Positions 2,059-51,565 of a stretch of DNA of 53,647 nucleotides are shown one piece after another. Both the position numbers and the translations under genes were made by a program. The stretch lies in the IMG/VR virus record IMGVR_UViG_3300042905_002653, positions 1 through 53,647 of that record; one strand, written 5' to 3'. Each line of letters starts with the position of its first letter. The stretch's first letter is position 1. The notes under the pieces were generated by a model. That model saw nothing but the letters and a program-made list of their open reading frames with translations. It made no database searches and had not been told where the DNA came from. Source of the DNA: a virus (taxonomy: Duplodnaviria; Caudoviricetes).

Positions 2059-2720
2059 GTCTGCACCTCCCCCGCAGGCAGCGGCAGGGCGCGGGCGGGG
2101 AGGCTGACGGTTTGATGCGACAGCCGCTCCGAGGGCTTGCGCAGAATCCAGCCGGCATCAGCGGCGCCATCCTGCGGCGCCCCAAACCAGCAACGTCCGG
2201 CTTCATCACACCACCCATCCCGCTCCCAGGGCCGCTCACTCACCGGCACGGGCGCGGGGCGGCGCTGCTCCAGCAGGTCGGCGGCGCGGGTGAGCATTCC
2301 TGCGTCCGGGTGGTCGCTGCTAGGGCCAAACTCCCCACTGGCATAGGTGCGCAACCACGCCACCGACTCCGTCACCTCCCCCTCGGCGGGCGGGGTGGGC
2401 TGGCGGCCCCAGCGGGCGAGGGCCTGGCGCTGTGCCCAGACAATGATTTCATCGAGGCCCAACTCGTCCCAGCCGTTGGCCGCGTCGGCTTGGGCGTTCC
2501 ACGCTGCCGCCAGCTGATCCAGCCCCAGTAGTTCCGCATCGCCAGGCTCCCCAGCGACGGCGGCCGGTTCCCTGCCCTCGGGCACAGCCGGTCCATCCGC
2601 CGACAATGCAGCGCAGGCGGCATAGAACGAATCGCTCCACGCAGGCACAGGTCCGTTCGGGTCGGATGCAGGCAGTCGGGCAATCAGCCGCTCCATCGCG
2701 GCGCGGATCGGGTCAGTCAT
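2055..2720 (-). CDS. Mosaic hypothetical phage protein
   Basis: N-terminal ~120 aa near-identical to 47782-48696; C-terminal PVPVSERPW...WCDEAGRCWF domain. Confidence 0.75.
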   Translation of the reverse strand: MTDPIRAAMERLIARLPASDPNGPVPAWSDSFYAACAALSADGPAVPEGREPAAVAGEPGDAELLGLDQLAAAWNAQADAANGWDELGLDEIIVWAQRQALARWGRQPTPPAEGEVTESVAWLRTYASGEFGPSSDHPDAGMLTRAADLLEQRRPAPVPVSERPWERDGWCDEAGRCWFGAPQDGAADAGWILRKPSERLSHQTVSLPARALPLPAGEVQT

Positions 2721-2893
2721 GATTCATCTCCAGGAATAAAGAACTCACAAAAAAACGTGATAATCAACGGCGGCTCCAGGAACACCTCACCACCAGCAGC
2801 AGTGCGCCGCTGGCAGGTCTGGCACTCCTCCAGCCAATCCTCAGGGCCATCGCCGAACCCTCGGCAGCGCTCGATGTTGGCAGGGAGGGTCAT
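2717..2893 (-). CDS. Small Cys-containing hypothetical protein (copy at 48693-48869)
   Basis: Manual translation [30 protein letters not shown]...; fills the gap with ATGA overlaps. Confidence 0.6.
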   Translation of the reverse strand: MTLPANIERCRGFGDGPEDWLEECQTCQRRTAAGGEVFLEPPLIITFFCEFFIPGDES

Positions 2894-3348
2894 GTTTCTG
2901 ACTCCGGTGAAGTGGTGGGGGTAACGAGATTGCGCACAGCCCAGTCACGAACAGATCGCCAGCGGCGGCGGCGTGACTGCTCATCGTTGCGCTCGTCGTG
3001 GTACTCGTTTTCGGAAACAACGGCATGAGCAAGGGTTTCGCTGATGTCAAACGGTTCAGCCAGATCGCGCCAATCCACGTCTGGATCAGTCGGATCAAAC
3101 CGCAGCGGCACAGCATCGGCACCTCGTTGAATCCTTACGGCACCCAGGGCGCAGACGCAGCCGGTTTCGGGATCCTCCAACGATCCGGCTGCCAGCTCTG
3201 GCACCGGCAGAGCATCCAAGCCGGCGATCAGATCACGCAGCAGTCGTTGACCACGGCGGCCACGGATGGCGCTTCGCATCGCTCCAGCGGCCTGGCCCTC
3301 CATCCACGGCTCATAGTCGTAGTCGTCGGAATCGTAGTAGCGGCTCAC
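2890..3348 (-). CDS. Hypothetical phage protein
   Basis: [15 protein letters not shown]...VCALGA...END...RWRSVRDW; coupled to neighbours. Confidence 0.75.
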
Positions 3349-3881
3349 AGCCCCACCTCCACACCAGCCGCATCAATCACGCTTTGCAGGTATTTCGTAG
3401 CCTCCTTGTTGGTGTCATAGAAATGCCCAGCCGCCTCCACTCCCAGCAGATACAAACCAGCCATGTGAACGCCAACTGCTGTTTCAAGCACGCAGCCAAC
3501 TTCACCGGCCAGATGAACAGCCCAGCCGCTTATGCAGTGGGTCGTTTCGCAGGTGTGCCAGTCGTTCATGTACAGTGCACCCGGCTGCAGCGCAGCTCGG
3601 GCTACGGCGAGCAATCGAGCGGGAGCGTCTGCGGCAATTTTGAGTCCAATGACGCCGCTGAGGTTGGCGCCGCTGAGGTCGGCGCGCGTGAGGTTGGCGC
3701 CCGTGAGGTAGGCGCGCGTGAGGTTGGCGCCGCTGAGGTCGGCGCCCGTGAGGTCGGCGCCCGTGAGGTTGGCGCGCGTGAGGTAGGCGCTAGGTCTTTG
3801 CAGTCGCTTACCCGTGCTCGAATCACTCAGCCACTGCGCGTGCAGTGCCAGGTCATCGGCTGTGATTGTGTCGGTGCTCAT
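3345..3881 (-). CDS. Pentapeptide-repeat protein with C-terminal WHTCxTTHCIxGW domain
   Basis: A[N/D/Y]L[T/S][G/R] repeats; start chosen by alignment to paralog 52319-52900 (frame is open further upstream). Confidence 0.85.
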
Positions 3882-3976
3882 GGTGCGAAAGGGTGGGTTG
3901 ATGAACAGTTGGCCTTCATGCAGGAATCCGCCGGTGCCCAGGCTGGGCGGATACCAGGTGCCGGCGGTGGTGATGG

Positions 3977-4159
3977 TCATGCCGCCACCCCCTTGAAGCG
4001 GCTCAGGATGTGCTCTCGGTAGTTGAAGAACTGCGCCTCTGCTGGTGGTGCACCAGATGGCAGCCAATCGGCATGGAGATGAGACCATTCCCGCCAACAG
4101 CCCGATGCCCAACACCAGTGGCGGCCATTCATCTGGGCATGGTCAAGGTGGGGGGTCAT
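3977..4159 (-). CDS. Small Trp-rich hypothetical protein (copy at 49953-50135)
   Basis: ATGA coupling to the MTase stop. Confidence 0.5.
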
Positions 4160-5583
4160 GCCGCCACCTCATGCCGCCTGCGCTGCTTCGGCCGGCGGTG
4201 CTGCTCCGGCAGCACCTGGCCCTTGATTCGCGCATACCTCGCGTTCACCGCCGCCCAGACTTCCTCGTCCTTGAACTCGAAGTGCACCGTGCCCTTCTTG
4301 TATGCACGGAACCGGAAGAAGCCCCACTCATACCACTTACCAGGCCAGAACACACCATCAGCAGGCTTGACGGGTTGGCCCACCTCGTCGTACTTCCGGC
4401 CGGTGATGAAACACAGCGCCTTGATCAGGTCCTGGATCTCATCCGCCTGGCTGCCGTAGGTCAGCACCCGTACGTACTCGCCGCACCATGCTGGTTCAGC
4501 CATGTAGGACCGGATGAAGCGCCGGTTGAGCATGTAACCCGAGTTGGTCACCCAGCCCTCCACACCGAACCGGTTCCCCTTGGTGTGCTTCGTCAGGCTG
4601 TCGATCGCCTGCTCTACCGCACGATCCACCCTGGCCTCTTGCGTGCCGGCGACGATCTGCAGCATCCGGTAGATGTTCCGCTCGGTGAACGGGATCCGGC
4701 TCTGTTTCTCCACGAACTGGTTGATGTCCTTGGCCAGCTGCGACGTGGCCAGCTGCGTCGGCAGGAACTCAGCGAAGACGTGTTTCCATGCCGCCTTCTG
4801 CAGATCCTTCCTGAACCGGTTGCGCGTTACCGGTGCACCTTCGACGGTGGCCTGTAAGCCCAGCTCCTGGCCGAAGAACCCATCCAGCACGCTGCGCAGC
4901 CTGGTGCCGGCCTCCACCTGCTCATCGAAAATCCGGCACGCCTCCACATACCGCTGCACGATGTCACTGCTGCGGCGGTACTGGATCAACCCCTCGCCTT
5001 GGGCCTCGATGTCGTCGGGGCCTAGGTAGAAGCCGTCGAACTCATCAGCGCCGCTTACACGTTGGCCAGGCTTGGTGAGCCGCACCAGCCCGACGCTCAC
5101 CTTGGTGGGACGCTCGGCGGTGGTGAAGCACTCGCCCAGATCGTCCAGGCTGCCGTATGCCTCGATCAGCTTGGCCAGCTGTAGCTGCAGCCCACGGAAC
5201 ACGCCTGAGACGGTGTTCCAGTTGCACAGCGCCACGATCTCGCACCCAGGCGGGGCGATCTCCCAAGCGTGCAAAATGTGGGCCTCGTCCGCCGAGAACG
5301 GCGGGTTCATCACGATCAGCTCGATGTGGCTGACCTGATGGGCCTCCACCAGCAGGAAGTCATGCCCCAGGTAGTAACCGCCCCGCAGGCTGGTCAGCAT
5401 GTCCCGCAGCTGCGGTTCCTTCTCGCACCACAGCACCTCCGCCGCGCCACGCTCCAGGCACTCCCGCACCAGGTTCCCTGAGCCGGCGCTGGGCTCCAGC
5501 ACCGTCTTGCCCCGCAGGTCGAGCGGGTCGAGCATCTCGGCCGCTACCTCGGGTGGGGTGGGGTAGAAGTCGGGGTTAAACAT
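4156..5583 (-). CDS. SAM-dependent DNA amino-methyltransferase with DUF4942-like C-terminus
   Basis: DFYPTP, motif I LEPSAGSG, motif IV MNPPF; C-terminal FFRFRAYKKGTVHFEF; start at MFNPDF. Confidence 0.85.
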   Translation of the reverse strand: MFNPDFYPTPPEVAAEMLDPLDLRGKTVLEPSAGSGNLVRECLERGAAEVLWCEKEPQLRDMLTSLRGGYYLGHDFLLVEAHQVSHIELIVMNPPFSADEAHILHAWEIAPPGCEIVALCNWNTVSGVFRGLQLQLAKLIEAYGSLDDLGECFTTAERPTKVSVGLVRLTKPGQRVSGADEFDGFYLGPDDIEAQGEGLIQYRRSSDIVQRYVEACRIFDEQVEAGTRLRSVLDGFFGQELGLQATVEGAPVTRNRFRKDLQKAAWKHVFAEFLPTQLATSQLAKDINQFVEKQSRIPFTERNIYRMLQIVAGTQEARVDRAVEQAIDSLTKHTKGNRFGVEGWVTNSGYMLNRRFIRSYMAEPAWCGEYVRVLTYGSQADEIQDLIKALCFITGRKYDEVGQPVKPADGVFWPGKWYEWGFFRFRAYKKGTVHFEFKDEEVWAAVNARYARIKGQVLPEQHRRPKQRRRHEVAA

Positions 5584-6154
5584 CACTGCCCCCCAACATC
5601 TGAAACGTGATCGCCCACACCCACGGGTTGGCGTCCCATGATCCGGGGCCGTTGATCTGCTCCCAAAGCCGGCGGTAAAGCACGCCGCCCCAGTTATCGG
5701 ACGTTTGTTCAAATGCGTTTGGCGTTACACCTTCCGCCCGTGCATCCCCTTCGCTGATCTCCTGCAGCCGCTGCACGCGAACGTCGGTGATCTCCAGCAG
5801 AATCCGCGATGCGGCTCGGGGCATGAAGATCGACGGGCGCCAGCGTGTGACGACAACATCCCATTCAGCCGAGTGGGGACGCTCAACGAAAACAGATTGC
5901 GCCTCCCCGTGATCAGCGCGATAGACCACCGGCGGGCCTGCTTTGGCTTCGTTCATGGCGAACGTCTCCCGTACCCACAGCCGGTCGCCGGGGCTGCCAT
6001 GCCGGCAGCCATTTTGGCGTGGGAATCGCTGAAGGATCCCGTCGAGATTTGGCATTTCGTCAAACTCCTTTGCAACCCTCCGCGTCTGGGTCTTGCTGCC
6101 GTCGAGGATGGCCCGCACCATCGGGCCGCTGAACAGGATCGGTCGTTCTTTCAT
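5576..6154 (-). CDS. ASCH/PUA-like phage protein
   Basis: MKERPILFSGPMVRAILDGSKTQTRR, GDRLWVRE, WRPSIFMPR, WDANPWVW family motifs. Confidence 0.85.
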   Translation of the reverse strand: MKERPILFSGPMVRAILDGSKTQTRRVAKEFDEMPNLDGILQRFPRQNGCRHGSPGDRLWVRETFAMNEAKAGPPVVYRADHGEAQSVFVERPHSAEWDVVVTRWRPSIFMPRAASRILLEITDVRVQRLQEISEGDARAEGVTPNAFEQTSDNWGGVLYRRLWEQINGPGSWDANPWVWAITFQMLGGSDV

Positions 6155-6312
6155 GGCTGGGCCTCCCCCTCGGCAGGCGGCTCGGGGTGGGCGAGGGCGG
6201 TCAGTCTGTTCAGCTCGGAGACGATCTCTTCAATTCGCATCATTACGCCATCGCGCAGGATGGCGGCACCGTCTGCGCAAACGCCCTCGGTGTAGCGGGT
6301 CAGGTCAGTCAT
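6151..6312 (-). CDS. Small hypothetical protein
   Basis: Manual translation MTDLTRYTEGVCADGAAILRDG...PPAEGEAQP; ATGA overlaps. Confidence 0.55.
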   Translation of the reverse strand: MTDLTRYTEGVCADGAAILRDGVMMRIEEIVSELNRLTALAHPEPPAEGEAQP

Positions 6313-6539
6313 TCGATGGTCTCCGCAGTGCAGCCAGGCCAGCGGTTCTGGCAGTAGCGAATGGCCCTGCCCCGGCTGGGCGCCGGGATGGTGATCGTCA
6401 TGGGTCGCATCGAGGGGATCTTCACCTGCAGGCGATAAGGGCGGGTCGTCTCAGTCGGCAGTGGCCGGCTAAGGCCGGGGCCCAGGGCGGGCTGGTGCTC
6501 GTCGGAGTCGTACAGCGGTCGTGGTTGCCAGGCCATCAT
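6309..6539 (-). CDS. Hypothetical protein
   Basis: Coupled ORF in operon; ends AIRYCQNRWPGCTAETIE. Confidence 0.6.
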   Translation of the reverse strand: MMAWQPRPLYDSDEHQPALGPGLSRPLPTETTRPYRLQVKIPSMRPMTITIPAPSRGRAIRYCQNRWPGCTAETIE

Positions 6540-6706
6540 TCGTGCTCCATATCAAGGACTCGCTCAAGGGCGCGGACATAGCCATCCCAGTAGCGCTCGG
6601 AGTGGTGCTCCCTGCGCTGCGCTTCCCGCAGGCGATTCACCCCGTCGAGGTGAAGTCGAAGGACGGCGGCTCGGGGGACATCGAGCGGGGTTTCTTGCTC
6701 GGGCAT
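6536..6706 (-). CDS. Small hypothetical protein
   Basis: Manual translation MPEQETPLDVPRAAVLRL...YWDGYVRALERVLDMEHE. Confidence 0.55.
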   Translation of the reverse strand: MPEQETPLDVPRAAVLRLHLDGVNRLREAQRREHHSERYWDGYVRALERVLDMEHE

Positions 6707-6876
6707 GGTTCGATGTTGCGGGGGTCGTGGATGTTGGTGGTCTGCTGGCCGGTGCCGCGCAGCAGCAGGGCCATGAGGCTGCGGCTGCGGACGGTCACTA
6801 CCTGGGCCTTGCGCCAGCCGCCCTGGTAGCGGACCCGGACGGGCTGGCCGGGTTCGTAGTCGGCGGTCCAGGCCAT
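6637..6876 (-). CDS. Small SH3/Tudor-like beta-barrel protein
   Basis: YEPGQPVRVRYQGGWRKAQVV pattern; fold is inferred. Confidence 0.5.
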   Translation of the reverse strand: MAWTADYEPGQPVRVRYQGGWRKAQVVTVRSRSLMALLLRGTGQQTTNIHDPRNIEPCPSKKPRSMSPEPPSFDFTSTG

Positions 6877-7091
6877 CGGAACCAGTCCCGCTGGCCAGCG
6901 CCCTGGTCGTATCGGCTCAGGTCGCGGAAGCTCTTGTCGAAGAACTCCGGGTGTTCGGTGAGGAAGCCCGGCGTGGGCAGCACCGGCTCGCCGGGTTGGC
7001 TGGTCTTGTTGAACTGCGAGATCGACCAGAGGCCACCCAGAAGGCCCTTCTCCAGGATTTGCTGCAGCGACTGCGGACTGATCAGGTGCAT
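6798..7091 (-). CDS. Hypothetical protein
   Basis: MHLISPQSLQQILEKGLLGGLWSISQF; part of the operon. Confidence 0.5.
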   Translation of the reverse strand: MHLISPQSLQQILEKGLLGGLWSISQFNKTSQPGEPVLPTPGFLTEHPEFFDKSFRDLSRYDQGAGQRDWFRWPGPPTTNPASPSGSATRAAGARPR

Positions 7092-7594
7092 GGCGCCTCC
7101 TGCTGTTCCTTGAGCTGCCGCAGATAGCCCTGCCACTGCTCATCGGTCAGGCCCTGGGCCTCGGCCGCAGCGGGCCGCAGCGGGGGCTGGCCGCCGCCCA
7201 CCACCTGGTAGGCATCTGGGTTCTGGATGTCCGGCGGTGGCAGCATCGAGCGCGCTTCGGTCGGCAGCAGCGCCAGCTGGGCAGGCTTGAACTGCACGAA
7301 ACCCGGCAGGCCCTCGGCAGGGCCCCAGCTGCGGTTGGCCAGCCCCGCCTCCCGCCGGTACAGCGGGGCCATCAACTCCCGCCAGGTGGGGTAGCGGGTA
7401 AAGCCGGCGGGCAGCGCCTGCACCCACTGCTCTGCGGCCCACATCAGCTGCGGGTCGTTCACCTCGGGGAACTCGGAGGTGAAGCTGTGGAACTTGAGCT
7501 TGCAGACATGGGCGCTCCAGCGGTCGGCCTCCTTGAGCCGGAGGTGGCCCGCAACCATTTCGGCCACGGCCAGGAAGGTCTCGCGGGTCACCAT
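7082..7594 (-). CDS. Hypothetical protein, possible helicase loader (lambda P-like position)
   Basis: Directly follows the initiator-like gene; helical N-terminus ending RYPTWREL; function inferred from context only. Confidence 0.5.
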   Translation of the reverse strand: MVTRETFLAVAEMVAGHLRLKEADRWSAHVCKLKFHSFTSEFPEVNDPQLMWAAEQWVQALPAGFTRYPTWRELMAPLYRREAGLANRSWGPAEGLPGFVQFKPAQLALLPTEARSMLPPPDIQNPDAYQVVGGGQPPLRPAAAEAQGLTDEQWQGYLRQLKEQQEAPCT

Positions 7595-8151
7595 GACGCC
7601 AGCGCCTCCCGCATCGCTGGGTCGGTGGGCGTCGGGCGGGTGCCGGCCGCAGCGGCCAGGTCGGAGCGGTCGAGAAACTCAGGCTTGAGCGCCTGCCAGC
7701 CGTGCTCCATTCCGGCCTTAGCCAGCTGCAGCTGCAGCTCCCTGGGCAGGCGCGCCACACGGTTGACGCTGCTCAGCCAAGCGGCCTCAGTCCAGACGGC
7801 CTTGGCCTTGTGTTTGCTCCAGCGGGACTCGTTCCACCACTGCACCAGCAGCGGCTGCGCTTCCAAGCAGACCTGGCCCAGCAGGTCGCCGCCCAGCTGG
7901 GCCTCAAACCGGGCAGCCTTGGCCACCTTCACCTTGGGGAGCTCCACCGGCGGGGTTGGCACCACCTCCAGCGCAGGCGGCTGGGCCACTTCCACGTAGC
8001 CGCTGGATCGGCCGGCGTAGAGCGCCACCCGCTCGAGGGTGCGGAACTGCTCGCCGCAGCCCTGGCAGATCCTGATGCGCAGGTCGGCCTCGGGCCGGGC
8101 CCGGGTTTCGATTACCCGGCTCTTGTCGTGGCCGCAGTGGGGGCACTTCAT
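7588..8151 (-). CDS. NrdR-like Zn-ribbon fused to a replication-initiator-like C-terminal domain
   Basis: MKCPHCGHDKSRVIETR...RIRICQGCGEQFRTLERV; no ATP-cone; C-terminus WWNESR...WTEAAW...HGWQAL. Confidence 0.65.
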   Translation of the reverse strand: MKCPHCGHDKSRVIETRARPEADLRIRICQGCGEQFRTLERVALYAGRSSGYVEVAQPPALEVVPTPPVELPKVKVAKAARFEAQLGGDLLGQVCLEAQPLLVQWWNESRWSKHKAKAVWTEAAWLSSVNRVARLPRELQLQLAKAGMEHGWQALKPEFLDRSDLAAAAGTRPTPTDPAMREALASW

Positions 8152-8357
8152 TGGCCTGCCTCCTTGGGCGCCCACTCCCCGCACCAGTCATCGCGGAGCA
8201 CCAGCGGCCACACCGCATACTCCCCGCCATTGATGCCAGGCCGTGGTGCCATCCGGCAGCACTTGGCTCTGTTCTGATCCCACCTGTTCATCGGCCGGCT
8301 GTACCTGCAGTTGATGCAGTTCTGGTCAGCGACGGGCGGGTAGCTGTGATTGCTCAT
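8148..8357 (-). CDS. Small Cys-rich (metal-binding) phage protein
   Basis: CINCRY...CCRMAPRP...WCGEW; paralog at 52135-52326. Confidence 0.7.
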   Translation of the reverse strand: MSNHSYPPVADQNCINCRYSRPMNRWDQNRAKCCRMAPRPGINGGEYAVWPLVLRDDWCGEWAPKEAGQ

Positions 8358-8715
8358 CCCAGATCACCTTGAGAAGGATTGATTGTTTGTTCATGGGGGA
8401 TTGCTCCCACTCGGCAACGATTCGCTTGAGCACCGTCACCCGGTCATCGACCCAGAGGATCCCCTTGCCGGCATCCATCACGGCGCCAGCCAGGTTGTCC
8501 AGATCGCTGGTGCCTGGCCCGCGGAACGTGAACTGCACGCACAGCAGCTGCCCTTTCTGCAGCGGCGGGATCGTCCACCACTCGCCGAGAATTGCCCGGC
8601 ACTGCTTCATCCAGCTGGCGTACTTGGTGTCGGTGTAGGCATGGCCGCTGAATCGCGGCCTGGCCTTGGGCTGGAGCGGCAGCGGCAGCTCGAAGTCGGC
8701 AGAGCGCACCGTCAT
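8326..8715 (-). CDS. rusA: RusA-family Holliday junction resolvase
   Basis: PKARPRF, DLDNLAGAVMDA, WVDD motifs. Confidence 0.85.
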   Translation of the reverse strand: MTVRSADFELPLPLQPKARPRFSGHAYTDTKYASWMKQCRAILGEWWTIPPLQKGQLLCVQFTFRGPGTSDLDNLAGAVMDAGKGILWVDDRVTVLKRIVAEWEQSPMNKQSILLKVIWDEQSQLPARR

Positions 8716-9335
8716 CAGAAGGGCACTTCCTCTTCGCTCGGATCACCCCCAAGACCGAAAGGGTCCGGGTCGCCGCTCTCCTGCTCGGGCAGCGCGAAGC
8801 CTTCCTCAGCATCACCAAACGCCGCGGCATGGTTGGGCGGGGTGTACGGCTGATAAGTGATCACCCGCACCGCTTCAAGCTGCAGGCTGATGCCCTTGCC
8901 GCCTTCGGGGCTGTCCCAGGAGTAGTAGGTGAAAGCCACCTTCCCGGTGCTGCCGTTCCCGATCAGCATGTCCACGGGCCATGGCTGACCCTTGGCGTCC
9001 TGGACGATGGGCGGCGGCAAGGGCGTGCCTCGCTTGGTAGCCACGTTGCGGCTGAAACTGAACTTCCACAGATCGGTCTCGTCGCCCTTCTCATCGAGGT
9101 ATGTCTTGACCGGCATGCCGTTCTGGCCGGGTCGGGCCGCAGCGCCGTGCTCGGCGACGAACAGCTGCTTCAGCTTCTTCACGAAGGCCTGGGCCTCGGC
9201 GTCCCCCTTGGGCATCAGCAGCTCGATGCTGTAGGCCTCCTTCTCCGATGCCTTCCCGGCGTTCTGGATACCGGGGGTCAGGATCTTCGCCCACATCAGG
9301 TCGCCCAGTGGGGTGACCATGGTCTCTCGCGCCAT
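8715..9335 (-). CDS. ssb: T7 gp2.5-type single-stranded DNA-binding protein
   Basis: TPLG..WAKI, IGNGSTGKV, GISLQLEAVRVI, acidic tail ending VPF; follows RNAP. Confidence 0.85.
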   Translation of the reverse strand: MARETMVTPLGDLMWAKILTPGIQNAGKASEKEAYSIELLMPKGDAEAQAFVKKLKQLFVAEHGAAARPGQNGMPVKTYLDEKGDETDLWKFSFSRNVATKRGTPLPPPIVQDAKGQPWPVDMLIGNGSTGKVAFTYYSWDSPEGGKGISLQLEAVRVITYQPYTPPNHAAAFGDAEEGFALPEQESGDPDPFGLGGDPSEEEVPF

Positions 9336-9341
9336 GTTGTG

Positions 9342-9355
9342 CTGCATCCATGCAG
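9342..9355. promoter_or_regulatory. CTGCA-N4-TGCAG palindrome before ssb
   Basis: CTGCATCCATGCAG. Confidence 0.7.
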
Positions 9356-9400
9356 AGTTGCAGCAGCACTCTGCCTCCTAGGGGCTTCACCGTCAAGCAC

Positions 9401-14948: not shown

Positions 14949-14951
14949 GGC

Positions 14952-42186: not shown

Positions 42187-42191
42187 CTGCT

Positions 42192-42205: not shown

Positions 42206-42227
42206 CCCTCATGCTATCGGTGCCAAC

Positions 42228-42259
42228 AAAAAGGCCCCAGCGCGCCAAACGCTGGGGCC
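42228..42259 (-). terminator. T-phi-like terminator after the capsid gene
   Basis: GGCCCCAGCG-TTTGGCG-CGCTGGGGCC-TTTTTGTT. Confidence 0.85.
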
Positions 42260-42284
42260 CCATGACCTTTGCTCCAGTCAAAGA

Positions 42285-43319: not shown

Positions 43320-43393
43320 TGCAGGGTTTGCGGTGAGCCTCTGCTATCCCCAGGCTTTTGCGATCAGGGTGTCGCCCTCGGGCGGCCTGTGCT

Positions 43394-43407
43394 CTGCATG
43401 AGTGCAG
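43394..43407. promoter_or_regulatory. Palindrome before the capsid gene
   Basis: CTGCATGAGTGCAG with an adjacent degenerate copy (TGAACTCATGCA). Confidence 0.7.
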
Positions 43408-43426
43408 ATGAACTCATGCACCCTTG

Positions 43427-44401
43427 CTACAGGAAGATTGGGGATCGTGCAAACTTGGCGTCGATGTATCGCCGGTATTTCTCGTCCACCAGGTAGCGCT
43501 GCTTGCCGCCCTTGGTGAGCACCGCCTTGGCCTCCAGCGCCTCCTCCTCGTTCTCGAACACATCCAGCGCTGGGGTGGCGTTGCCGCCGCTGGCCAGCAC
43601 CAGGTCGGGCTCCTTGTCGGCGCTGGCCGCCTTGTTCTGCAGCCACCGCACCGCCATTTCTGCGGCGGCCCGGCTGCCGGTGTTCACCGCATCGTTGTAG
43701 CTGGCCAGCTCGGCCTCGCTCAAGTTGGTGGCAGCCCACTGGCTGAGCTTGGCGAACTGCTGGTCGCCGCCCACCAGGGAACGGACGGCCGCGGCATCCT
43801 CATCGCTCAGGCCTGGGGCGGTGGTGTCGGCCGCGGCGGCAGGGCGGAAGGCGGCCTCGTAGCGCTCGATCAGCTGCGCAGGCAGGCCCAAGGCGCCGGC
43901 CAGCTTGTCGCGCATGGCGCTGGTGTCCTCGCCCTTCTGCACTGCGGCATCCCACAGCGCCAGGTCGATGCCCTCGCGCTCGGCTGCTGCCACCACGGTC
44001 TCCCCGTAATGGCCCACGGCGTCCTCGCGGGACAGCGGGGCCACCGGCTCAGGGTCAGCTGTCGAGGATTCCTCGGTAGCTGAATCGGCCCGCTGGCCCA
44101 GCTTTTGCTGCAGCGCCAGGTAGGCCTTCTCCAGTTCCTCGGGGCTCTTGAACTTCCCGGCCAGGGGGCGGGCCTCGCCGGCCGGCTCGTCGCCTTCGGC
44201 CTCCACCTCGTCGCCTTGGACAGTGAGGGTGGCGAAGTCAGGTTGTGCCGCAGGCGCCGGTGGCTGGATGGTGCCGCTGGCCAGCGCAGCGTCCTCCTCG
44301 GCGATCTCCTGCAGGAACCCGGCCAGTGCGTCCTTGTCGTAGCCGGGGCCGGCCAGCGCCATTTGCTCGGGCGTGATGTCCATGGTGGGGGTGGTGGTCA
44401 T
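43427..44401 (-). CDS. Capsid scaffolding protein (gp9)
   Basis: LAGKFKSPEELEKAY, VGGDQQF..WA..NL, RY..D..YR. Confidence 0.9.
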   Translation of the reverse strand: MTTTPTMDITPEQMALAGPGYDKDALAGFLQEIAEEDAALASGTIQPPAPAAQPDFATLTVQGDEVEAEGDEPAGEARPLAGKFKSPEELEKAYLALQQKLGQRADSATEESSTADPEPVAPLSREDAVGHYGETVVAAAEREGIDLALWDAAVQKGEDTSAMRDKLAGALGLPAQLIERYEAAFRPAAAADTTAPGLSDEDAAAVRSLVGGDQQFAKLSQWAATNLSEAELASYNDAVNTGSRAAAEMAVRWLQNKAASADKEPDLVLASGGNATPALDVFENEEEALEAKAVLTKGGKQRYLVDEKYRRYIDAKFARSPIFL

Positions 44402-46026
44402 TCGGGTTGTGGTTGCTGGATCTCTTGAACGGTCTGGGCGGCGTTGGCCAGCTTCTGCGGGTCGGCCATCGCCGACTGCATCACGGCCGCCTGCTGCTGG
44501 GCCTCCATCGCGGCCTGCCGCTCCTCCTCGATCTGCTGCTGGCTCTTGATCAGACCCACCGTGTCGATGCCCATTGCGGCAGCGAGGCGGCTGATCAGCT
44601 CCGACGGGATCAGGTATTGCAGCGTGCCTTCGGGGGTGATGGTCTGCTGCAGGATCTGCATGAAGCGGGCATGGCGTTCGAGGTCGTTGCCCCGGCCCAC
44701 GGCCGCCAGGCCCACGCTCACCACCGGCTTGATGGTGTCGTCGGGCAGCTTGGGCAGCCCGCCGGACTGGGTGAGCAGGTACAGCCGCCGGGCGATGTAG
44801 GGGTACTGGAACTCAGTCGTGAGCACGCTGTAGATCCCGCCCAGGCTGTTCTCGATCTGCTGCGCTTGGATCCGCACCTCCTCGGCCGTGGTGCGCTCCG
44901 AGTCGCGGGCTTCGTTCAGCATGAAGCTCACGGCCAGCCGGGCCTCCACCCGCTGCAGCCGCTGCTCGGCCACCGCCAGATCGCTGCCCTTGCCCACCTG
45001 CACGGCGGTGATGTCCTCCGGGTTGCCGGTGAGGCAGGCGCCGTTGGCGGCCTCGTTGAACTGCTTGGCGGTGACGGCTGCACCCGGCTTGGCCAGGAAC
45101 TTGCACATCGAGCTGACCAGCGCGCCCTCTGTCAGCGCCCGGGTGAGGGCGTTGGCGGTTTGCAGGTCGGCCATGGTGGCCGCCTCGACATAGCCCGGCC
45201 CGTAGTCCTCCGAGTCGATGGCGAACATGCGCAGCGGAATCCAGGGGCTGTGCTCCCGGTTGCAGCTGCCCTCGCTGCCCTCGATGCGGCGGCCCTTGAG
45301 CTCCTGATACCAGCTGCAGCGGCTCTTGTTCCAGCTGATGTGGGTGTAGACCTTGACCAGTCGCTCATCAGGCAGGGTCTCGGTGCCGCCGCCGGGGCGC
45401 TCCTCGGTGAGCGGATCCATCGGCTCCACCTGGTCGAGGATCTTGCGGGCCGCCTCGGGCAGTTCGTCGGCCGGGATCCGCTCGCACACCACCGCCTCCA
45501 GCGGCCGGCCCACGGGGTCGCGGCGCAGCACATAGCGGTAGAGGTTGAACACCTTGGCGCCCTCCTTGGGCAGCCAGATCAGGCAGTTGCCGGCAATGAT
45601 CAGGTGCAGCAGCGCCTGGTGCAGAGCGGTGCGGTCGTTGCTGGCCTCGATGCTGCGTAGCACCGCCCGCTCCATCATCCCCAGGGTCTTGTCCACCTGG
45701 GTCTTGAGCTCAGCGATCTGCTCCGGGCTGTCGCCGGTCGCAATCATTTCGGCCTGCTGCGCAGCAAAGGCCATGTCGTCGTGGACGAACCGGAAGAAGG
45801 TCTCGGTGGGCGGCAGCAGGGCCAGCAGCAGCCGGCTGGCGATGTTGTGGACACCCCGCTGACCGATGCCATCCCACGGGTGGTCGATCTTCTGCAGCGC
45901 CTGGGCCTCGGGTTCGCCATCGAACGGCATCACCCAGGGCAGCGTGAGTGCAGACGCCTCCCGCCCGCGGTCAATCCAGTGGTTGCGCGCTGGTTCGAGC
46001 TTCTTGTAGCGGTTCTCTGCTGTCAT
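44398..46026 (-). CDS. Portal / head-tail connector (gp8)
   Basis: GVHNIASRLLLALLPP, EDYG, RDSERTTAEEVR, LGGIYS. Confidence 0.95.
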   Translation of the reverse strand: MTAENRYKKLEPARNHWIDRGREASALTLPWVMPFDGEPEAQALQKIDHPWDGIGQRGVHNIASRLLLALLPPTETFFRFVHDDMAFAAQQAEMIATGDSPEQIAELKTQVDKTLGMMERAVLRSIEASNDRTALHQALLHLIIAGNCLIWLPKEGAKVFNLYRYVLRRDPVGRPLEAVVCERIPADELPEAARKILDQVEPMDPLTEERPGGGTETLPDERLVKVYTHISWNKSRCSWYQELKGRRIEGSEGSCNREHSPWIPLRMFAIDSEDYGPGYVEAATMADLQTANALTRALTEGALVSSMCKFLAKPGAAVTAKQFNEAANGACLTGNPEDITAVQVGKGSDLAVAEQRLQRVEARLAVSFMLNEARDSERTTAEEVRIQAQQIENSLGGIYSVLTTEFQYPYIARRLYLLTQSGGLPKLPDDTIKPVVSVGLAAVGRGNDLERHARFMQILQQTITPEGTLQYLIPSELISRLAAAMGIDTVGLIKSQQQIEEERQAAMEAQQQAAVMQSAMADPQKLANAAQTVQEIQQPQPE

Positions 46027-46418
46027 CGGCCGATGTTCAACCCGGTGGCCGGTGCGCGGCGGGTGCCGATGGTGAGGCTCGGGGTGCGCGGAGCAGCGGG
46101 CGCAGCGGGCTGGATGGCCTCAGTGGTCTGGGCGGCAGCGGCCGGCGCCTGCTGCGTGGTCTCGACGGTGTAGGACTGGTTGGCCATGGCTGCGCTGGAG
46201 CTGATCGCGGCCTGTTGCTGCTGCAGTTCCTCGGCAGCTGCCCCGGCGGCGGCATTGGCCTCGTCGATCTGTGCCTGCAGCTGCTGCTGGAACTCGGCCT
46301 GGCTGGCCTCTGCTGCCTTGGTGGCCATGTTGAGCTGCTTCTCCTGCTGCTTGATCTCCTTGTTGGAGGGCCCCTGGTACACAACCTTGGGGGGCTGGGG
46401 GGTTGATCCCATGCACAT
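46023..46418 (-). CDS. Virion assembly protein (gp7.3-like)
   Basis: MC start, ends SLTI...GLNIG; precedes the portal. Confidence 0.7.
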   Translation of the reverse strand: MCMGSTPQPPKVVYQGPSNKEIKQQEKQLNMATKAAEASQAEFQQQLQAQIDEANAAAGAAAEELQQQQAAISSSAAMANQSYTVETTQQAPAAAAQTTEAIQPAAPAAPRTPSLTIGTRRAPATGLNIGR

Positions 46419-46420
46419 GA

Positions 46421-46822
46421 TCAGTACCTGGCGATGTTGAGGCCGGTGCCGGCCTTGTTGCCGCTGGCCGCCTTGGGCTCGATGCGCAGGGTGGTCTTGC
46501 CCTGGGGGCTGGTCATCCCCTGGCGGCTGCTGCCCAGCACCGGCGCCTTGGCGGCCGGCTCGGGAGTCGGCGCACCGATCAGCGCTGCCATCCGTGCTGC
46601 GTCGGCAGCGGTCTGCGATGCGCGCTGCTCCTGGGCCGCCAGCAGCTGCTGCATCGTCCCCTGCTGGTTGAGGGTGGCCTGGTTGAGCCGCTCCTGCATC
46701 AGCATGGTGGAGCTCTCCTGCTGCTGGCGCAGCGCGGCCATCTGCTGATCGGCCATCCGATCAAAGGCGCCCATGTCCGGCATGGTGATCGTCGCCCGTG
46801 GGGCGGAACCTCCGAAGCACAT
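46421..46822 (-). CDS. Virion protein (gp6.7-like)
   Basis: MCFGG start, GKTTLRI...GLNI; paralogous tail to the next gene. Confidence 0.7.
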   Translation of the reverse strand: MCFGGSAPRATITMPDMGAFDRMADQQMAALRQQQESSTMLMQERLNQATLNQQGTMQQLLAAQEQRASQTAADAARMAALIGAPTPEPAAKAPVLGSSRQGMTSPQGKTTLRIEPKAASGNKAGTGLNIARY

Positions 46823-46989
46823 CAGCTGAGGCCCTCCTGTTGTTCGGCGTGCCAGCGCTTGATGCAATCCACCACCGCCTGCTCACCGATCCAGTGATCA
46901 ATGTCCCGATGGGACATCGAGCGATCCGGCTTTTGGCCAAAGGTGGCGTCGAGCCGCTTGATCAGTTCATCGCTGACGATGGGAAACAC
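46822..46989 (-). CDS. gp6.5-like small protein
   Basis: Manual translation MFPIVSDELIKRLDATF...IGEQAVVDCIKRWHAEQ (55 aa). Confidence 0.7.
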   Translation of the reverse strand: MFPIVSDELIKRLDATFGQKPDRSMSHRDIDHWIGEQAVVDCIKRWHAEQQEGLS

Positions 46990-47002
46990 TGCATCCATGC
47001 AG
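46989..47002. promoter_or_regulatory. Palindrome at the start of the late operon
   Basis: CTGCATCCATGCAG, identical to the 9342 site. Confidence 0.7.
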
Positions 47003-47005
47003 ACA

Positions 47006-47785
47006 TCACAAGGCTACCGGGGGGCTCCATAGGCGGACAGTCTGGTTTTCGAGGTCGTATTCACCAGCGCGAAGGATGCGTGCGCAGCGTGCCTGGGTGA
47101 TGGCGTAGTGCTCACCGAAGCCTTTTTTCTCAAAGGCCTTGAGCACGGCCTGCCACATCTGCAGCTCACTGGTGCAGCCGGCCAGCGCCTTCTGAGCCGT
47201 CACCGGGCCATAGCCCGGGCAGCCGGGGTAGTTGTCGCTGGCGTCGCCGGTGAGGGTCTGGGCGTAGAACGCCAGGTCGGCATCGAGCAGGTTCACCTCC
47301 TGCAGCTCACCGTTGCGCAGGTGCAGGCCAGGCAGGGTGAGCATGTCCTTGTCGATCGAGCAGATCACGTCGCCCCACTCATGGAGCACGCCCAGCACGT
47401 CGTCGCCTTCGAGGTCGGGCAGCTCGGCGGTCTGCCACCCCCGGGCCGGGCCGGCCTTGGTCACCCAGTCCACCAGCTGCCGGTAGCCGGCGGGCTTGCG
47501 GTACTTCTTGCGGTTGGCCTTGTACTGGGGCCACACGCCATAGCGAAAGCTGGTGCGGCTGCCGAACACCAGCACTGGCTGATGATCGGGGAGGGTGTCG
47601 CGGATCTCGCCGATGGCGTCCTGGAACAGTGCCTGGGCATCGCCGTGGCGACAGGTGTAGGTCCAGTCATCGGGCGCCCATTCCGTCTCCACTTTGCAGG
47701 CTGCAGCAGCCCGGAACAGGTAGACCTCCGCATCAATCAGGGCTTTCACTCCCTCCCACAGCGGTGGGCAGTTGGGCGTGGTCAT
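47006..47785 (-). CDS. 5'-3' exonuclease (T7 gp6-like)
   Basis: YKANR, EGDDVLG, SIDKDM, GDASDNYPGCPG. Confidence 0.92.
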   Translation of the reverse strand: MTTPNCPPLWEGVKALIDAEVYLFRAAAACKVETEWAPDDWTYTCRHGDAQALFQDAIGEIRDTLPDHQPVLVFGSRTSFRYGVWPQYKANRKKYRKPAGYRQLVDWVTKAGPARGWQTAELPDLEGDDVLGVLHEWGDVICSIDKDMLTLPGLHLRNGELQEVNLLDADLAFYAQTLTGDASDNYPGCPGYGPVTAQKALAGCTSELQMWQAVLKAFEKKGFGEHYAITQARCARILRAGEYDLENQTVRLWSPPVAL

Positions 47786-48696
47786 GGCCGGGCCTCCAGT
47801 TCGTTGGCGATGGCGAGATTCCGTTGACGCTCGGACTCCACACCATCGCGGAATGGCCAGTAGCTATCGCCTACCACATGGGCGGGCACTCCGCCGGCCC
47901 GCCCCGCAGCAGCGCGAAGGGCGGCGGCAGCGATCCTGTGGTTTTCATCCATGAAGTCCATGTTGACTTCATACATTGCGTCGGACACCGCCTGCGCAGC
48001 GGGCGACAGCGGCGGGCGGTTGGGGGTGATCATGACTGCACCTCCCCCCGCAGGCACCGGCAGGGCGTGGGAGGGGAGCAACCAGCCGGCGTACGCCATG
48101 GATGGCGGGATCATTAGCCAACACGGCGGGCCATCTGGCGGACACCACCAGCACTCGCCGTCTAGGTCAAGCCACCCGCCCCGCTCCCAAGGCCGCTCAG
48201 TCACCGGCACCGGCACCACCACCGGCACGGGCGTGGGGTGCTGCTGCTGGAATAACTCGGCGGCGCGGTGGCATTTGGCACCTTCGGAGTATTGGCCAAG
48301 ATCCCTCCATTCCCTGGCGCTTGTCTGCAACCACGCCACCAACTCCGTCACCTCCCCCTCGGCGGGCGGGGTGGGCTGGCGGCCCCAGCGGGCGAGGGCC
48401 TGGCGCTGTGCCCAGACAATGATTTCATCGAGGCCCAACTCGTCCCAGCCGTTGGCCGCGTCGGCTTGGGCGTTCCACGCTGCCGCCAGCTGATCCAGCC
48501 CCAGTAGTTCCGCATCGCCAGGCTCCCCAGCGACGGCGGCCGGTTCCCTGCCCTCGGGCACAGCCGGTCCATCCGCCGACAATGCAGCGCAGGCGGCATA
48601 GAACGAATCGCTCCACGCAGGCACAGGTCCGTTCGGGTCGGATGCAGGCAGTCGGGCAATCAGCCGCTCCATCGCGGCGCGGATCGGGTCAGTCAT
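47782..48696 (-). CDS. Mosaic hypothetical protein (fusion of the families at 2055-2720 and 1795-2058)
   Basis: Internal MITPNRPPLSPAAQAV in frame. Confidence 0.65.
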   Translation of the reverse strand: MTDPIRAAMERLIARLPASDPNGPVPAWSDSFYAACAALSADGPAVPEGREPAAVAGEPGDAELLGLDQLAAAWNAQADAANGWDELGLDEIIVWAQRQALARWGRQPTPPAEGEVTELVAWLQTSAREWRDLGQYSEGAKCHRAAELFQQQHPTPVPVVVPVPVTERPWERGGWLDLDGECWWCPPDGPPCWLMIPPSMAYAGWLLPSHALPVPAGGGAVMITPNRPPLSPAAQAVSDAMYEVNMDFMDENHRIAAAALRAAAGRAGGVPAHVVGDSYWPFRDGVESERQRNLAIANELEARP

Positions 48697-48865
48697 GATT
48701 CATCTCCAGGAATAAAGAACTCACAAAAAAACGTGATAATCAACGGCGGCTCCAGGAACACCTCACCACCAGCAGCAGTGCGCCGCTGGCAGGTCTGGCA
48801 CTCCTCCAGCCAATCCTCAGGGCCATCGCCGAACCCTCGGCAGCGCTCGATGTTGGCAGGGAGGG

Positions 48866-49324
48866 TCATGTTTCTGACTCCGGTGAAGTGGTGGGGGTAA
48901 CGAGATTGCGCACAGCCCAGTCACGAACAGATCGCCAGCGGCGGCGGCGTGACTGCTCATCGTTGCGCTCGTCGTGGTACTCGTTTTCGGAAACAACGGC
49001 ATGAGCAAGGGTTTCGCTGATGTCAAACGGTTCAGCCAGATCGCGCCAATCCACGTCTGGATCAGTCGGATCAAACCGCAGCGGCACAGCATCGGCACCT
49101 CGTTGAATCCTTACGGCACCCAGGGCGCAGACGCAGCCGGTTTCGGGATCCTCCAACGATCCGGCTGCCAGCTCTGGCACCGGCAGAGCATCCAAGCCGG
49201 CGATCAGATCACGCAGCAGTCGTTGACCACGGCGGCCACGGATGGCGCTTCGCATCGCTCCAGCGGCCTGGCCCTCCATCCACGGCTCATAGTCGTAGTC
49301 GTCGGAATCGTAGTAGCGGCTCAC
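48866..49324 (-). CDS. Hypothetical protein (copy of 2890-3348)
   Basis: Identical translation. Confidence 0.75.
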
Positions 49325-49857
49325 AGCCCCACCTCCACACCAGCCGCATCAATCACGCTTTGCAGGTATTTCGTAGCCTCCTTGTTGGTGTCATAGAAAT
49401 GCCCAGCCGCCTCCACTCCCAGCAGATACAAACCAGCCATGTGAACGCCAACTGCTGTTTCAAGCACGCAGCCAACTTCACCGGCCAGATGAACAGCCCA
49501 GCCGCTTATGCAGTGGGTCGTTTCGCAGGTGTGCCAGTCGTTCATGTACAGTGCACCCGGCTGCAGCGCAGCTCGGGCTACGGCGAGCAATCGAGCGGGA
49601 GCGTCTGCGGCAATTTTGAGTCCAATGACGCCGCTGAGGTTGGCGCCGCTGAGGTCGGCGCGCGTGAGGTTGGCGCCCGTGAGGTAGGCGCGCGTGAGGT
49701 TGGCGCCGCTGAGGTCGGCGCCCGTGAGGTCGGCGCCCGTGAGGTTGGCGCGCGTGAGGTAGGCGCTAGGTCTTTGCAGTCGCTTACCCGTGCTCGAATC
49801 ACTCAGCCACTGCGCGTGCAGTGCCAGGTCATCGGCTGTGATTGTGTCGGTGCTCAT
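49321..49857 (-). CDS. Pentapeptide-repeat protein (copy of 3345-3881)
   Basis: Identical translation. Confidence 0.85.
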
Positions 49858-50131
49858 GGTGCGAAAGGGTGGGTTGATGAACAGTTGGCCTTCATGCAGG
49901 AATCCGCCGGTGCCCAGGCTGGGCGGATACCAGGTGCCGGCGGTGGTGATGGTCATGCCGCCACCCCCTTGAAGCGGCTCAGGATGTGCTCTCGGTAGTT
50001 GAAGAACTGCGCCTCTGCTGGTGGTGCACCAGATGGCAGCCAATCGGCATGGAGATGAGACCATTCCCGCCAACAGCCCGATGCCCAACACCAGTGGCGG
50101 CCATTCATCTGGGCATGGTCAAGGTGGGGGG

Positions 50132-51565
50132 TCATGCCGCCACCTCATGCCGCCTGCGCTGCTTCGGCCGGCGGTGCTGCTCCGGCAGCACCTGGCCCTT
50201 GATTCGCGCATACCTCGCGTTCACCGCCGCCCAGACTTCCTCGTCCTTGAACTCGAAGTGCACCGTGCCCTTCTTGTATGCACGGAACCGGAAGAAGCCC
50301 CACTCATACCACTTACCAGGCCAGAACACACCATCAGCAGGCTTGACGGGTTGGCCCACCTCGTCGTACTTCCGGCCGGTGATGAAACACAGCGCCTTGA
50401 TCAGGTCCTGGATCTCATCCGCCTGGCTGCCGTAGGTCAGCACCCGTACGTACTCGCCGCACCATGCTGGTTCAGCCATGTAGGACCGGATGAAGCGCCG
50501 GTTGAGCATGTAACCCGAGTTGGTCACCCAGCCCTCCACACCGAACCGGTTCCCCTTGGTGTGCTTCGTCAGGCTGTCGATCGCCTGCTCTACCGCACGA
50601 TCCACCCTGGCCTCTTGCGTGCCGGCGACGATCTGCAGCATCCGGTAGATGTTCCGCTCGGTGAACGGGATCCGGCTCTGTTTCTCCACGAACTGGTTGA
50701 TGTCCTTGGCCAGCTGCGACGTGGCCAGCTGCGTCGGCAGGAACTCAGCGAAGACGTGTTTCCATGCCGCCTTCTGCAGATCCTTCCTGAACCGGTTGCG
50801 CGTTACCGGTGCACCTTCGACGGTGGCCTGTAAGCCCAGCTCCTGGCCGAAGAACCCATCCAGCACGCTGCGCAGCCTGGTGCCGGCCTCCACCTGCTCA
50901 TCGAAAATCCGGCACGCCTCCACATACCGCTGCACGATGTCACTGCTGCGGCGGTACTGGATCAACCCCTCGCCTTGGGCCTCGATGTCGTCGGGGCCTA
51001 GGTAGAAGCCGTCGAACTCATCAGCGCCGCTTACACGTTGGCCAGGCTTGGTGAGCCGCACCAGCCCGACGCTCACCTTGGTGGGACGCTCGGCGGTGGT
51101 GAAGCACTCGCCCAGATCGTCCAGGCTGCCGTATGCCTCGATCAGCTTGGCCAGCTGTAGCTGCAGCCCACGGAACACGCCTGAGACGGTGTTCCAGTTG
51201 CACAGCGCCACGATCTCGCACCCAGGCGGGGCGATCTCCCAAGCGTGCAAAATGTGGGCCTCGTCCGCCGAGAACGGCGGGTTCATCACGATCAGCTCGA
51301 TGTGGCTGACCTGATGGGCCTCCACCAGCAGGAAGTCATGCCCCAGGTAGTAACCGCCCCGCAGGCTGGTCAGCATGTCCCGCAGCTGCGGTTCCTTCTC
51401 GCACCACAGCACCTCCGCCGCGCCACGCTCCAGGCACTCCCGCACCAGGTTCCCTGAGCCGGCGCTGGGCTCCAGCACCGTCTTGCCCCGCAGGTCGAGC
51501 GGGTCGAGCATCTCGGCCGCTACCTCGGGTGGGGTGGGGTAGAAGTCGGGGTTCAGGAAACTCAT
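50132..51565 (-). CDS. DNA methyltransferase, DUF4942-like (copy 2; differs only at the N-terminus)
   Basis: MSFLNPDFYPTP versus MFNPDFYPTP. Confidence 0.85.
   Translation of the reverse strand: MSFLNPDFYPTPPEVAAEMLDPLDLRGKTVLEPSAGSGNLVRECLERGAAEVLWCEKEPQLRDMLTSLRGGYYLGHDFLLVEAHQVSHIELIVMNPPFSADEAHILHAWEIAPPGCEIVALCNWNTVSGVFRGLQLQLAKLIEAYGSLDDLGECFTTAERPTKVSVGLVRLTKPGQRVSGADEFDGFYLGPDDIEAQGEGLIQYRRSSDIVQRYVEACRIFDEQVEAGTRLRSVLDGFFGQELGLQATVEGAPVTRNRFRKDLQKAAWKHVFAEFLPTQLATSQLAKDINQFVEKQSRIPFTERNIYRMLQIVAGTQEARVDRAVEQAIDSLTKHTKGNRFGVEGWVTNSGYMLNRRFIRSYMAEPAWCGEYVRVLTYGSQADEIQDLIKALCFITGRKYDEVGQPVKPADGVFWPGKWYEWGFFRFRAYKKGTVHFEFKDEEVWAAVNARYARIKGQVLPEQHRRPKQRRRHEVAA

Follow-up and report, generated by a model that had tools for sequence, protein, structure and literature searches.

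A 53.6-kb lake virus record as a probable assembly loop that joins a T7-type cyanopodovirus and an HK97-type phage through a shared cassette

The virus record IMGVR_UViG_3300042905_002653 of IMG/VR is a single 53,647-bp contig without N from a lake metagenome, and the window analysed here is the entire record. A reading made from the sequence alone had proposed that a whole T7-like phage sits inside a second phage by way of a shared 3.2-kb block, either as a physical cointegrate or because the assembler walked a loop through the block. In the present study, the second of these alternatives was favoured: the record is most likely the passage of an assembler through a graph loop, where a circular genome shares an edge with the path of another phage, and the nested "phage inside phage" layout is probably not true as one physical molecule. 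The shared block is ordinary phage mosaicism, a cassette that was recently swapped into a slot of the podophage.

Layout of the record and the loop through the repeat

Self-BLAST of the window revealed a direct repeat, R, at 2351-5577 and 48327-51553 (3227 bp, 99.97% identity, ungapped, spacing 45,976). The sole mismatch (2365 G vs 48341 A) lies 15 nt from the edge, so that 2366-5577 is a perfect match of 3212 bp; such a repeat cannot be chance. The near-identical R copies and the layout around the podophage were borne out by this self-BLAST at the coordinates that the sequence-only reading had proposed. The five parts of the record are as follows, where L005 is an IMG/VR contig and S-SRP02 is a deposited cyanopodovirus.

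1..2350, minus: A, downstream flank of R in the second (HK97-type) phage (L005, 98.6% over window 2597 to 20)
2351..5577, minus: R copy 1, the shared block (self-BLAST identity; families by PHROG/Pfam)
5578..48326, minus: X, body of an S-SRP02-like T7-type cyanopodovirus (PHROG, Pfam, tblastn to S-SRP02)
48327..51553, minus: R copy 2, same genes as copy 1 (self-BLAST identity; methyltransferase at 50132-51565)
51554..53647, minus: B, upstream flank of R in the second phage (five IMG/VR contigs)

Circular permutation of the whole record was ruled out, as the window ends match neither each other nor the interior. There was no terminal overlap or terminal repeat, and the first and last 400 nt had no match of at least 20 nt elsewhere in the window. 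We also rejected A and B as diverged copies of the X ends, for which tblastx gave only the homology at 2012-2350 and short low-complexity matches. At the nucleotide level, A matched X nowhere besides 2012-2102, a stretch of weaker homology left of R (90% identity to 47987-48078).

The gene content of R is given for copy 1.

2351..5577, minus: the N-terminal 118 codons of the 2055-2720 gene, two small open reading frames (ORFs) and the three genes below
2890-3348, minus: phrog_25637 gene (PHROG)
3345-4115, minus: pentapeptide-repeat gene (PHROG/Pfam)
4156-5583, minus: DUF4942 methyltransferase gene (PHROG/Pfam)

Both edges of R fall within genes, as had been claimed. The left edge is intragenic, where the minus-strand ORFs 2055-2720 and 47782-48696 agree over their first ~118 residues and diverge afterwards. 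The right edge falls 6-12 nt into the methyltransferase ORF from its 5' end and so practically coincides with a gene boundary. The two methyltransferase copies open with MFNP... and MSFLNP..., and each overlaps the stop of a different upstream gene, by ATGTTTAA with the phrog_874 gene at copy 1 and by ATGA with the phrog_22148 gene at copy 2. Both starts are well-formed coupled gene junctions, indicating that both contexts of R belong to evolved genomes and are not random joins.

The record can be explained by two separate phages of the same lake community, which would be a podophage with a circular map (X+R) and an HK97-type phage with an early and replication region that reads B-R-A. In a de Bruijn graph, R would collapse to one edge, with A and the end of X as entrances and the start of X and B as exits. 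R and X would then form a cycle on the path A-R-B, and one pass through the cycle would yield A-R-X-R-B, with R copies that are identical by construction. SPAdes-type assemblers pass a simple loop once. The loop is favoured because all four junctions are already supplied by the two parental genomes, and the near-perfect identity of the R copies is expected when one graph edge is written twice. We infer both the loop pass by the assembler and the direction in which the cassette was transferred. Part of the Phables preprint (PMC10104058) describes how phage mosaicism and repeats lead to fragmented or chimeric contigs and to shared unitigs.

Both simple paths through the graph were seen independently, B-R-A in L005 and the start of X joined to its end in two contigs without R, L032 and L057. 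L005 (20.3 kb) carries B-R-A with a 1353-nt insertion in R, runs 689 nt past the left end of the window and contains no podophage. L032, a 3750-nt metagenome contig, follows the window from 9107 to 6161 at 99.93%, continues through 163 nt of other sequence and then follows 48369 to 47730 at 100%. L057, a 30.9-kb contig in a Prochlorococcaceae metagenome-assembled genome (MAG) with 89-96% identity to the window, joins 6701 to 47748 via ~380 nt. The sequence-only reading had stated that the nesting would be an assembly chimera if only A-R-B and a separate circle were supported; the A-R-B half was found in L005, and the circle half was found only in relatives without R.

At least 82% of the words sampled from 1-8000 were found in each of 20 listed metagenome runs from lake water or freshwater. 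From two runs, X1 and X2, Logan contigs (k=31) with k-mer depth were mapped on 1-12000, together with the raw-read runs X21 and X22. The latter gave 33 and 130 reads, nearly all on the repeat at 537-848 and largely adapter or poly-G, and yielded no usable depth. The depths in X1 and X2 were as follows; the unitig from the end of X into R was recognised by a loose end with the letters of window 47957-47986.

A unitig (1458-2395): X1 44.7, X2 36.3
Unitig from the end of X into R: X1 34.6, X2 48.5
Main X unitig (9.4-9.8 kb): X1 34.0, X2 49.5
Unitig from R into the start of X (5548-6119): X1 not listed, X2 33.3
R: X1 75.4 at 2366-3664, then 58.7-65.5; X2 48-60

Unitigs started or ended at 2366/2395 and 5548/5577 in both runs, indicating that both contexts of R coexist in each sample. 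In X1, the depth of R at 2366-3664 was close to 79.3, the sum of A and the unitig entering from the end of X, and the later parts of R were lower. In X2, the depth of R was below the sum of the entering paths, and variant unitigs were present. With A:X depth ratios of 1.3 (X1) and 0.74 (X2), the sole form cannot be a 1:1 cointegrate. Thus the read-depth check suggested by the sequence-only reading ruled out a cointegrate as the only form, and a mixture that includes a cointegrate still fits the depths.

The physical counterpart of the loop is a real Campbell-type cointegrate, in which one crossover within R between the circular podophage and the second phage, as a prophage or as replicating DNA, would have joined the two in at least part of the population. 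In a Campbell-type insertion, a circle is inserted by homologous recombination, which gives a cointegrate. The layout of the record is the exact product of a single crossover between a circle and a linear partner that share R, and an assembly loop gives the same picture. The 3.2 kb of identity would be an ample recombination substrate, both phages co-occur in X1 and X2, and the 20 listed runs retain the words of 1-8000 at the level given above. A cointegrate would nevertheless be an extra event that nothing requires, and we found no positive evidence for one. As the only form it is contradicted by the A:X ratios, and the parental forms were seen independently in L005, L032 and L057. It would probably also be too large for either capsid (46 kb plus the second phage; contigs of its relatives reach 60-66 kb), as the head capacity of T7-type and HK97-type phages would be insufficient for both genomes together. 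In addition, the contig stops ~2 kb past each R. X1, X2 and L005 all leave the window sequence at position 20, and the first 19 nt of the window are another branch, suggesting that graph branches, rather than the ends of a genome, terminate the contig. We consider a cointegrate improbable. That the nesting is real in part of the population, by recombination across R with a co-infecting or resident HK97-type phage and with persistence in the lake, is decidedly improbable.

Several observations weigh against the loop. No read or contig spanned R with both unique flanks in the podophage context, no independent contig closed the podophage circle across R in IMG/VR or the metagenome scan, and a 40-nt probe of the junction from R into the start of X had 0 hits in IMG/VR. 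The depth of A was at least that of the R-bearing podophage in both runs (X1 44.7 vs 34; X2 36.3 vs 33.3), and the near-equality in X2 is the prediction of a cointegrate. A cointegrate together with free second phage and other podophage variants fits the depths as well as two free phages. Furthermore, 3.2 kb would hardly be enough to produce a false loop if the record had been assembled from long reads.

The podophage, its variable slot and its putative attP

PHROG was scanned with 94 ORFs and Pfam with 39 ORFs. By gene content and order, X plus R is a predicted complete 45,976-bp, integrase-bearing T7-type cyanopodovirus of the S-SRP02 lineage with a circular map. The claim that the interior with one R makes up a whole T7-like phage was supported by the PHROG and Pfam hits and by collinearity with S-SRP02. 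In tblastn, 29 of the 68 queried window ORFs matched S-SRP02 with 27-74% identity, collinear and all within 6798-47785, and the ORFs of A (eight in or overlapping it), R and B gave zero matches to that phage. S-SRP02, the subject of PMC8790148, which is drawn on here in part, was the one deposited phage to which megablast of 25000-49000 gave a match (4% covered) and the best match for 1-8000. The main features of X are as follows.

9401..11803, minus: single-subunit T7-type RNA polymerase (phrog_414, E 1.3e-125, full-length; 46% identity to the S-SRP02 enzyme)
11921..11960, minus (sense strand): putative attP core, 5' half (positions -2 to 38) of tRNA-Met(CAT), intact
12077..13063, minus: tyrosine integrase (PF00589 E 1.9e-19; phrog_1 E 6e-47)
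13094-13426, minus: MarR-like regulator, preceding the integrase
14952-15890: ArdC-like gene (ArdC-N and MPTase-PolyVal, anti-restriction-like)
17167..20944, plus: module inverted relative to the rest, as in S-SRP02 (PHROG, Pfam, tblastn)
18069-19832, plus: large terminase (PHROG/Pfam)
20099-20944, plus: C39-like peptidase/endolysin (PHROG/Pfam)
25966..46026, minus: T7-type virion module with portal, scaffold, capsid, tail tubes A and B, internal virion proteins and fibre (PHROG, tblastn)
25966-27999, minus: tail fibre
42285-43319, minus: capsid
44398-46026, minus: portal
47006..47785, minus: 5'-3' exonuclease, the first conserved podophage gene downstream of the variable slot (phrog_107 E 8e-56; PF02739)

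On the minus strand, the order from ~16 kb is the ArdC-like gene, the MarR-like gene, the integrase, the RNA polymerase, a gp2.5-type single-stranded DNA-binding protein (SSB), RusA, an NrdR-zinc-ribbon regulator, small ORFs, phrog_874 and R. From 48326 it continues with the exonuclease, portal, scaffold, capsid, tail tubes A/B, internal virion proteins and fibre. Among the 94 ORFs scanned with PHROG, there was no DNA polymerase or T7-type primase-helicase.

Relatives differ in the region that separates the early genes from the exonuclease. In S-SRP02, there is ~1 kb between the homologue of 6798-7136 and the exonuclease homologue downstream of it, with four small ORFs in the slot. In L014 and L016 (IMG/VR, ~80% identity), the start of X is joined to its end via 2.7 and 4.4 kb. 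Together with L032, which has 163 nt and a whole gene in the slot, and with the insert of L057, these differences indicate that the region is, as far as the compared sequences go, a hypervariable slot, in which the window has R and the phrog_874 gene. R was present in one of the six podophage-lineage sequences that cover the slot, namely the window, and was missing from L032, L057, L014, L016 and S-SRP02. The phrog_874 gene is also missing from L032, whose match to X stops at 6161. A metagenome scan with the 47782-48696 protein gave 24 loci, of which only L032 and L043, a fragment internal to R, matched the window at the nucleotide level.

A podophage that never has R would also account for these absences; in that case, the join from R into the start of X would be chimeric, and R would occur only in the family of the second phage. 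R is indeed missing from all five other sequences that cover the slot, and phrog_874 adjoins the methyltransferase in L095, a relative of the second phage. The unitigs contradict this explanation. In X2, the main X unitig (6090-15499, 9.4 kb) runs unbroken across 6161 into phrog_874 and has a 30-nt overlap with the 5548-6119 unitig that enters R, indicating that the podophage really carries the cassette. In both runs, the unitig from the end of X passes into R at 2351-2395 and has the depth of X, and the junction of phrog_874 with the methyltransferase is a neat ATGTTTAA overlap. We regard a chimeric join as very improbable indeed.

At the right edge of the cassette (6090-6161), the podophage population is not uniform. 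In X1, the main X unitig stops at 6128, where the graph branches close to the 6161 junction seen in L032. In X2, a branch was observed at 6090-6119 inside phrog_874, where the depth of 49.5 is split into 33.3 and a remainder.

The integrase, putative attP and RNA polymerase had been described as contiguous, and we found the 11921-11960 segment unbroken between the integrase and RNA polymerase genes. The segment matches 38 of 40 nt of a tRNA-Met gene (L080, ARAGORN) in the MAG G001, which also holds a related phage contig. The 40-mer with two mismatches is present once each in 14 of the 301 sampled genomes of the family of this MAG, and tRNA gene status was confirmed by ARAGORN at the MAG locus only among these matches. 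In the relatives L057/L079, L014 and L056, the segment is kept at 40 of 40 nt with differing flanks. The two differences from tRNA-Met form a compensatory D-stem pair, A12-T23 to T12-A23, and this suggests that the true host carries a T12-A23 allele of tRNA-Met. The half ends after the anticodon loop; integrases usually target the 3' half of a tRNA, and use of the 5' half is unusual.

Integrated copies (attL/attR) were not found at tRNA-Met, as the second half-site occurred in none of the 14 genomes with the 40-mer among the 301 sampled. The only exact copy of the 40-mer in these genomes was the phage contig itself. The results fit a picocyanobacterial host and an intact, unused putative attP. 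No tRNA genes were found in the window, L056 or L057. An Rfam hit to SorX in 11500-17200 was sub-threshold (23.5 bits vs a gathering score of 46.6) and was taken as chance.

The second phage and the exchange of the cassette

An IMG/VR search with the B gene 51562-51942 gave nine loci, of which five (L002-L006) follow the window from 53647 into R with 98.7-99.97% identity. In four of these five, B is preceded upstream by at least 8.2 kb of DNA without a match to the window. Genes for a primase, helicase, endonuclease, RecE-like exonuclease and SSB lie in this DNA, and the walk on from the primase reached TerS, a phrog_15 TerL, a portal-sized ORF and a fused protease-major-capsid gene. Of the five contigs, L005 alone spans R completely; the other four stop in R or soon after it, and X is in none. 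By these neighbours, A-R-B is read as a fragment of a different, HK97-type tailed phage unrelated to the podophage. The proposal that A and B come from a different phage thus agreed with the primase, helicase, terminase and protease-capsid module of L002-L006, and the SSB and the paralogues of internal genes attributed to the flanks were likewise found, the former as PF00436 in B and the latter in A. The features of A and B are as follows.

538-840, minus: (G-N/Y/D)n repeat protein in A
1199-1486, minus: helix-turn-helix protein in A (PHROG/Pfam)
Within A, minus: diverged C-terminal part of the 2055-2720 gene
51562-51942, minus: phrog_22148 gene in B
52319-52900, minus: pentapeptide-repeat gene in B, related to that of R
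53175-53561, minus: SSB, E. coli-type (PF00436 E 9e-28)

The small minus-strand ORFs of A include paralogues of the C-terminal part of 47782-48696. In A, 537-848 is a 12-nt tandem repeat that encodes the (Gly-Asn/Tyr/Asp)n protein of ORF 538-840. It recruits ~10x the surrounding depth in the metagenome runs, as well as adapter and poly-G artefacts, and is likely a shared low-complexity sequence and an assembly trouble spot.

These contigs also bear on the explanation that A and B are arms of a bubble, alternative alleles of the variable region of the same podophage in a second strain. The slot is hypervariable in the lineage, and the end of A is homologous to the sequence just left of R copy 2, both of which would suit such arms. 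The contigs with B, however, lead into the primase, helicase, RecE-like exonuclease, TerS, phrog_15 TerL and protease-capsid genes, which have no nucleotide match to X, and the window ends share no k-mer with the interior. Bubble arms are already contradicted by these data and hardly credible.

R varies among the contigs of the second phage. The 1353-nt insertion of L005 (13589-14941) carries two ORFs without family assignment, and a deletion in L004 (11811-11834) removes the pentapeptide and phrog_25637 genes from R.

The sites that mark the cassette in the podophage are as follows.

5576..6154, minus: phrog_874 gene, right-hand part of the podophage cassette, outside R (PHROG E 1.6e-70)
6162..6174, minus: motif GCCGAGGGGGAGG copy 1, right edge of the podophage cassette
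48327..48369, minus: 43-nt stretch, inferred left crossover site, common to L032, the R-bearing podophage and the second phage
48351-48363, minus: motif GCCGAGGGGGAGG copy 2, inside the 43-nt stretch

In L032, one continuous ORF runs from the homologue of 6151-6312 via the 163 nt into the homologue of 47782-48696, and it holds two copies of the 13-nt motif GCCGAGGGGGAGG, whose starts are 183 nt apart. This ORF is split in the window, where its first part ends just past the motif at 6162-6174, at the start of phrog_874. The 100% identity of L032 ends at 48369, and identity on the side of A begins at 2351/2366.

We propose that the cassette (6160 to 5578 plus R) would have replaced ~150 nt of a podophage gene on entering the slot that separates the early genes from the exonuclease gene. 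It would comprise phrog_874, the DUF4942 methyltransferase, the pentapeptide-repeat protein, phrog_25637 and the 5' part of the shared gene, and the left crossover would fall in the 43-nt stretch, within a gene family common to both phages. A near-identical opening, ATGA(C/T)CACNCCCAAC(C/T)GCCC..., was also observed at three minus-strand gene starts (2058, 48033 and 47785). It encodes M(T/I)TPN(R/C)PPL, and 2002-2073 and 47977-48048 share 88% over 72 nt (repeat family D7). Such conserved gene-start openings could serve as recombination points in both phages.

R was present in all five close contigs of the second phage, although L004 lacks the pentapeptide segment. L095 (IMG/VR, 45.8 kb), a distant relative of the second phage, carries at 10001-12308 a phrog_874 gene between a B-like gene and a methyltransferase of 78% identity, where L005 has phrog_22148. 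The gene of L095 is a mosaic relative to that of the window, with ~96% identity over the first ~80 nt, a divergent middle and 99.5% over the 3' 400 nt. Among the best 80 of 576 IMG/VR relatives of the phrog_874 protein, nucleotide matches to the window were found only in L095, L097 and L159, and none had a near-identical cassette. The likeliest donor appears to be a member of the family of the second phage, because R occurs in all five of its contigs and in one of six podophage sequences, and because of the phrog_874 gene of L095. The family names of the cassette genes suggest a role in anti-restriction or counter-defence. A recent exchange of the methyltransferase/pentapeptide module between the two phages, as the sequence-only reading had put it, was upheld by the near-identity of R, both contexts of R in the runs, and L032 without R.

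Significance and comparison with known systems

The nesting itself is most likely not a real feature, and the value of the record is mainly cautionary and descriptive. A "high-quality" 53.6-kb record is made up of a 46-kb phage, 4.4 kb of another phage and a duplicated 3.2 kb, and genome size, completeness, taxonomy and gene sharing would all be misjudged from such a record. The record also documents the exchange, between two unrelated lake phages, of a methyltransferase/pentapeptide cassette that plausibly serves anti-restriction, with an identifiable crossover site and a presence/absence polymorphism, as podophage contigs without R also exist. The particular pair documented here is a temperate T7-type cyanopodovirus and an HK97-type phage, with a close relative of the podophage in a picocyanobacterial MAG. 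If true, the nesting would be an unusual means of carrying one phage within another, and a T7-type phage could ride in the lysogen of another phage without its own integrase or tRNA-Met attP.

The podophage resembles S-SRP02 (MW822601, 42,143 bp, Autographiviridae) in the order of the MarR-like gene, integrase, RNA polymerase, gp2.5-type SSB, RusA and NrdR-like gene. Further along, both have the variable slot, 5'-3' exonuclease, portal, scaffold, capsid, tail tubes, internal proteins and fibre, and both have the terminase and C39 peptidase on the opposite strand. A family-A DNA polymerase or T7-type primase-helicase was found in neither. However, the two genomes share just two short nucleotide matches (69-75% identity) and differ in size (42,143 bp vs 45,976 bp). 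Unlike S-SRP02, the window podophage carries the R cassette and the ArdC-like gene, and it has the tRNA-Met-like segment beside the integrase gene, of which BLAST found none in S-SRP02.

As in the looped contigs with shared modules that part of PMC10104058 covers, a unitig is common to two phages, with branches at its ends and approximately summed depth. The record also holds the shared edge twice around a circular genome, probably through a passage of the loop. The layout is similar to a Campbell-type insertion in that direct repeats of the shared segment flank a complete circle in the record, but the stoichiometry is not 1:1 and the parental forms are documented independently. Modular mosaicism in tailed phages is the recent exchange of accessory or anti-restriction genes at gene boundaries. 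The present case shares with it the abrupt change from unrelated sequence to 99.97% identity and a cargo of a methyltransferase and a pentapeptide-repeat protein. One edge lies at a gene boundary and the other in a short shared stretch of a homologous gene, and nothing in this arrangement is unusual for tailed phages.

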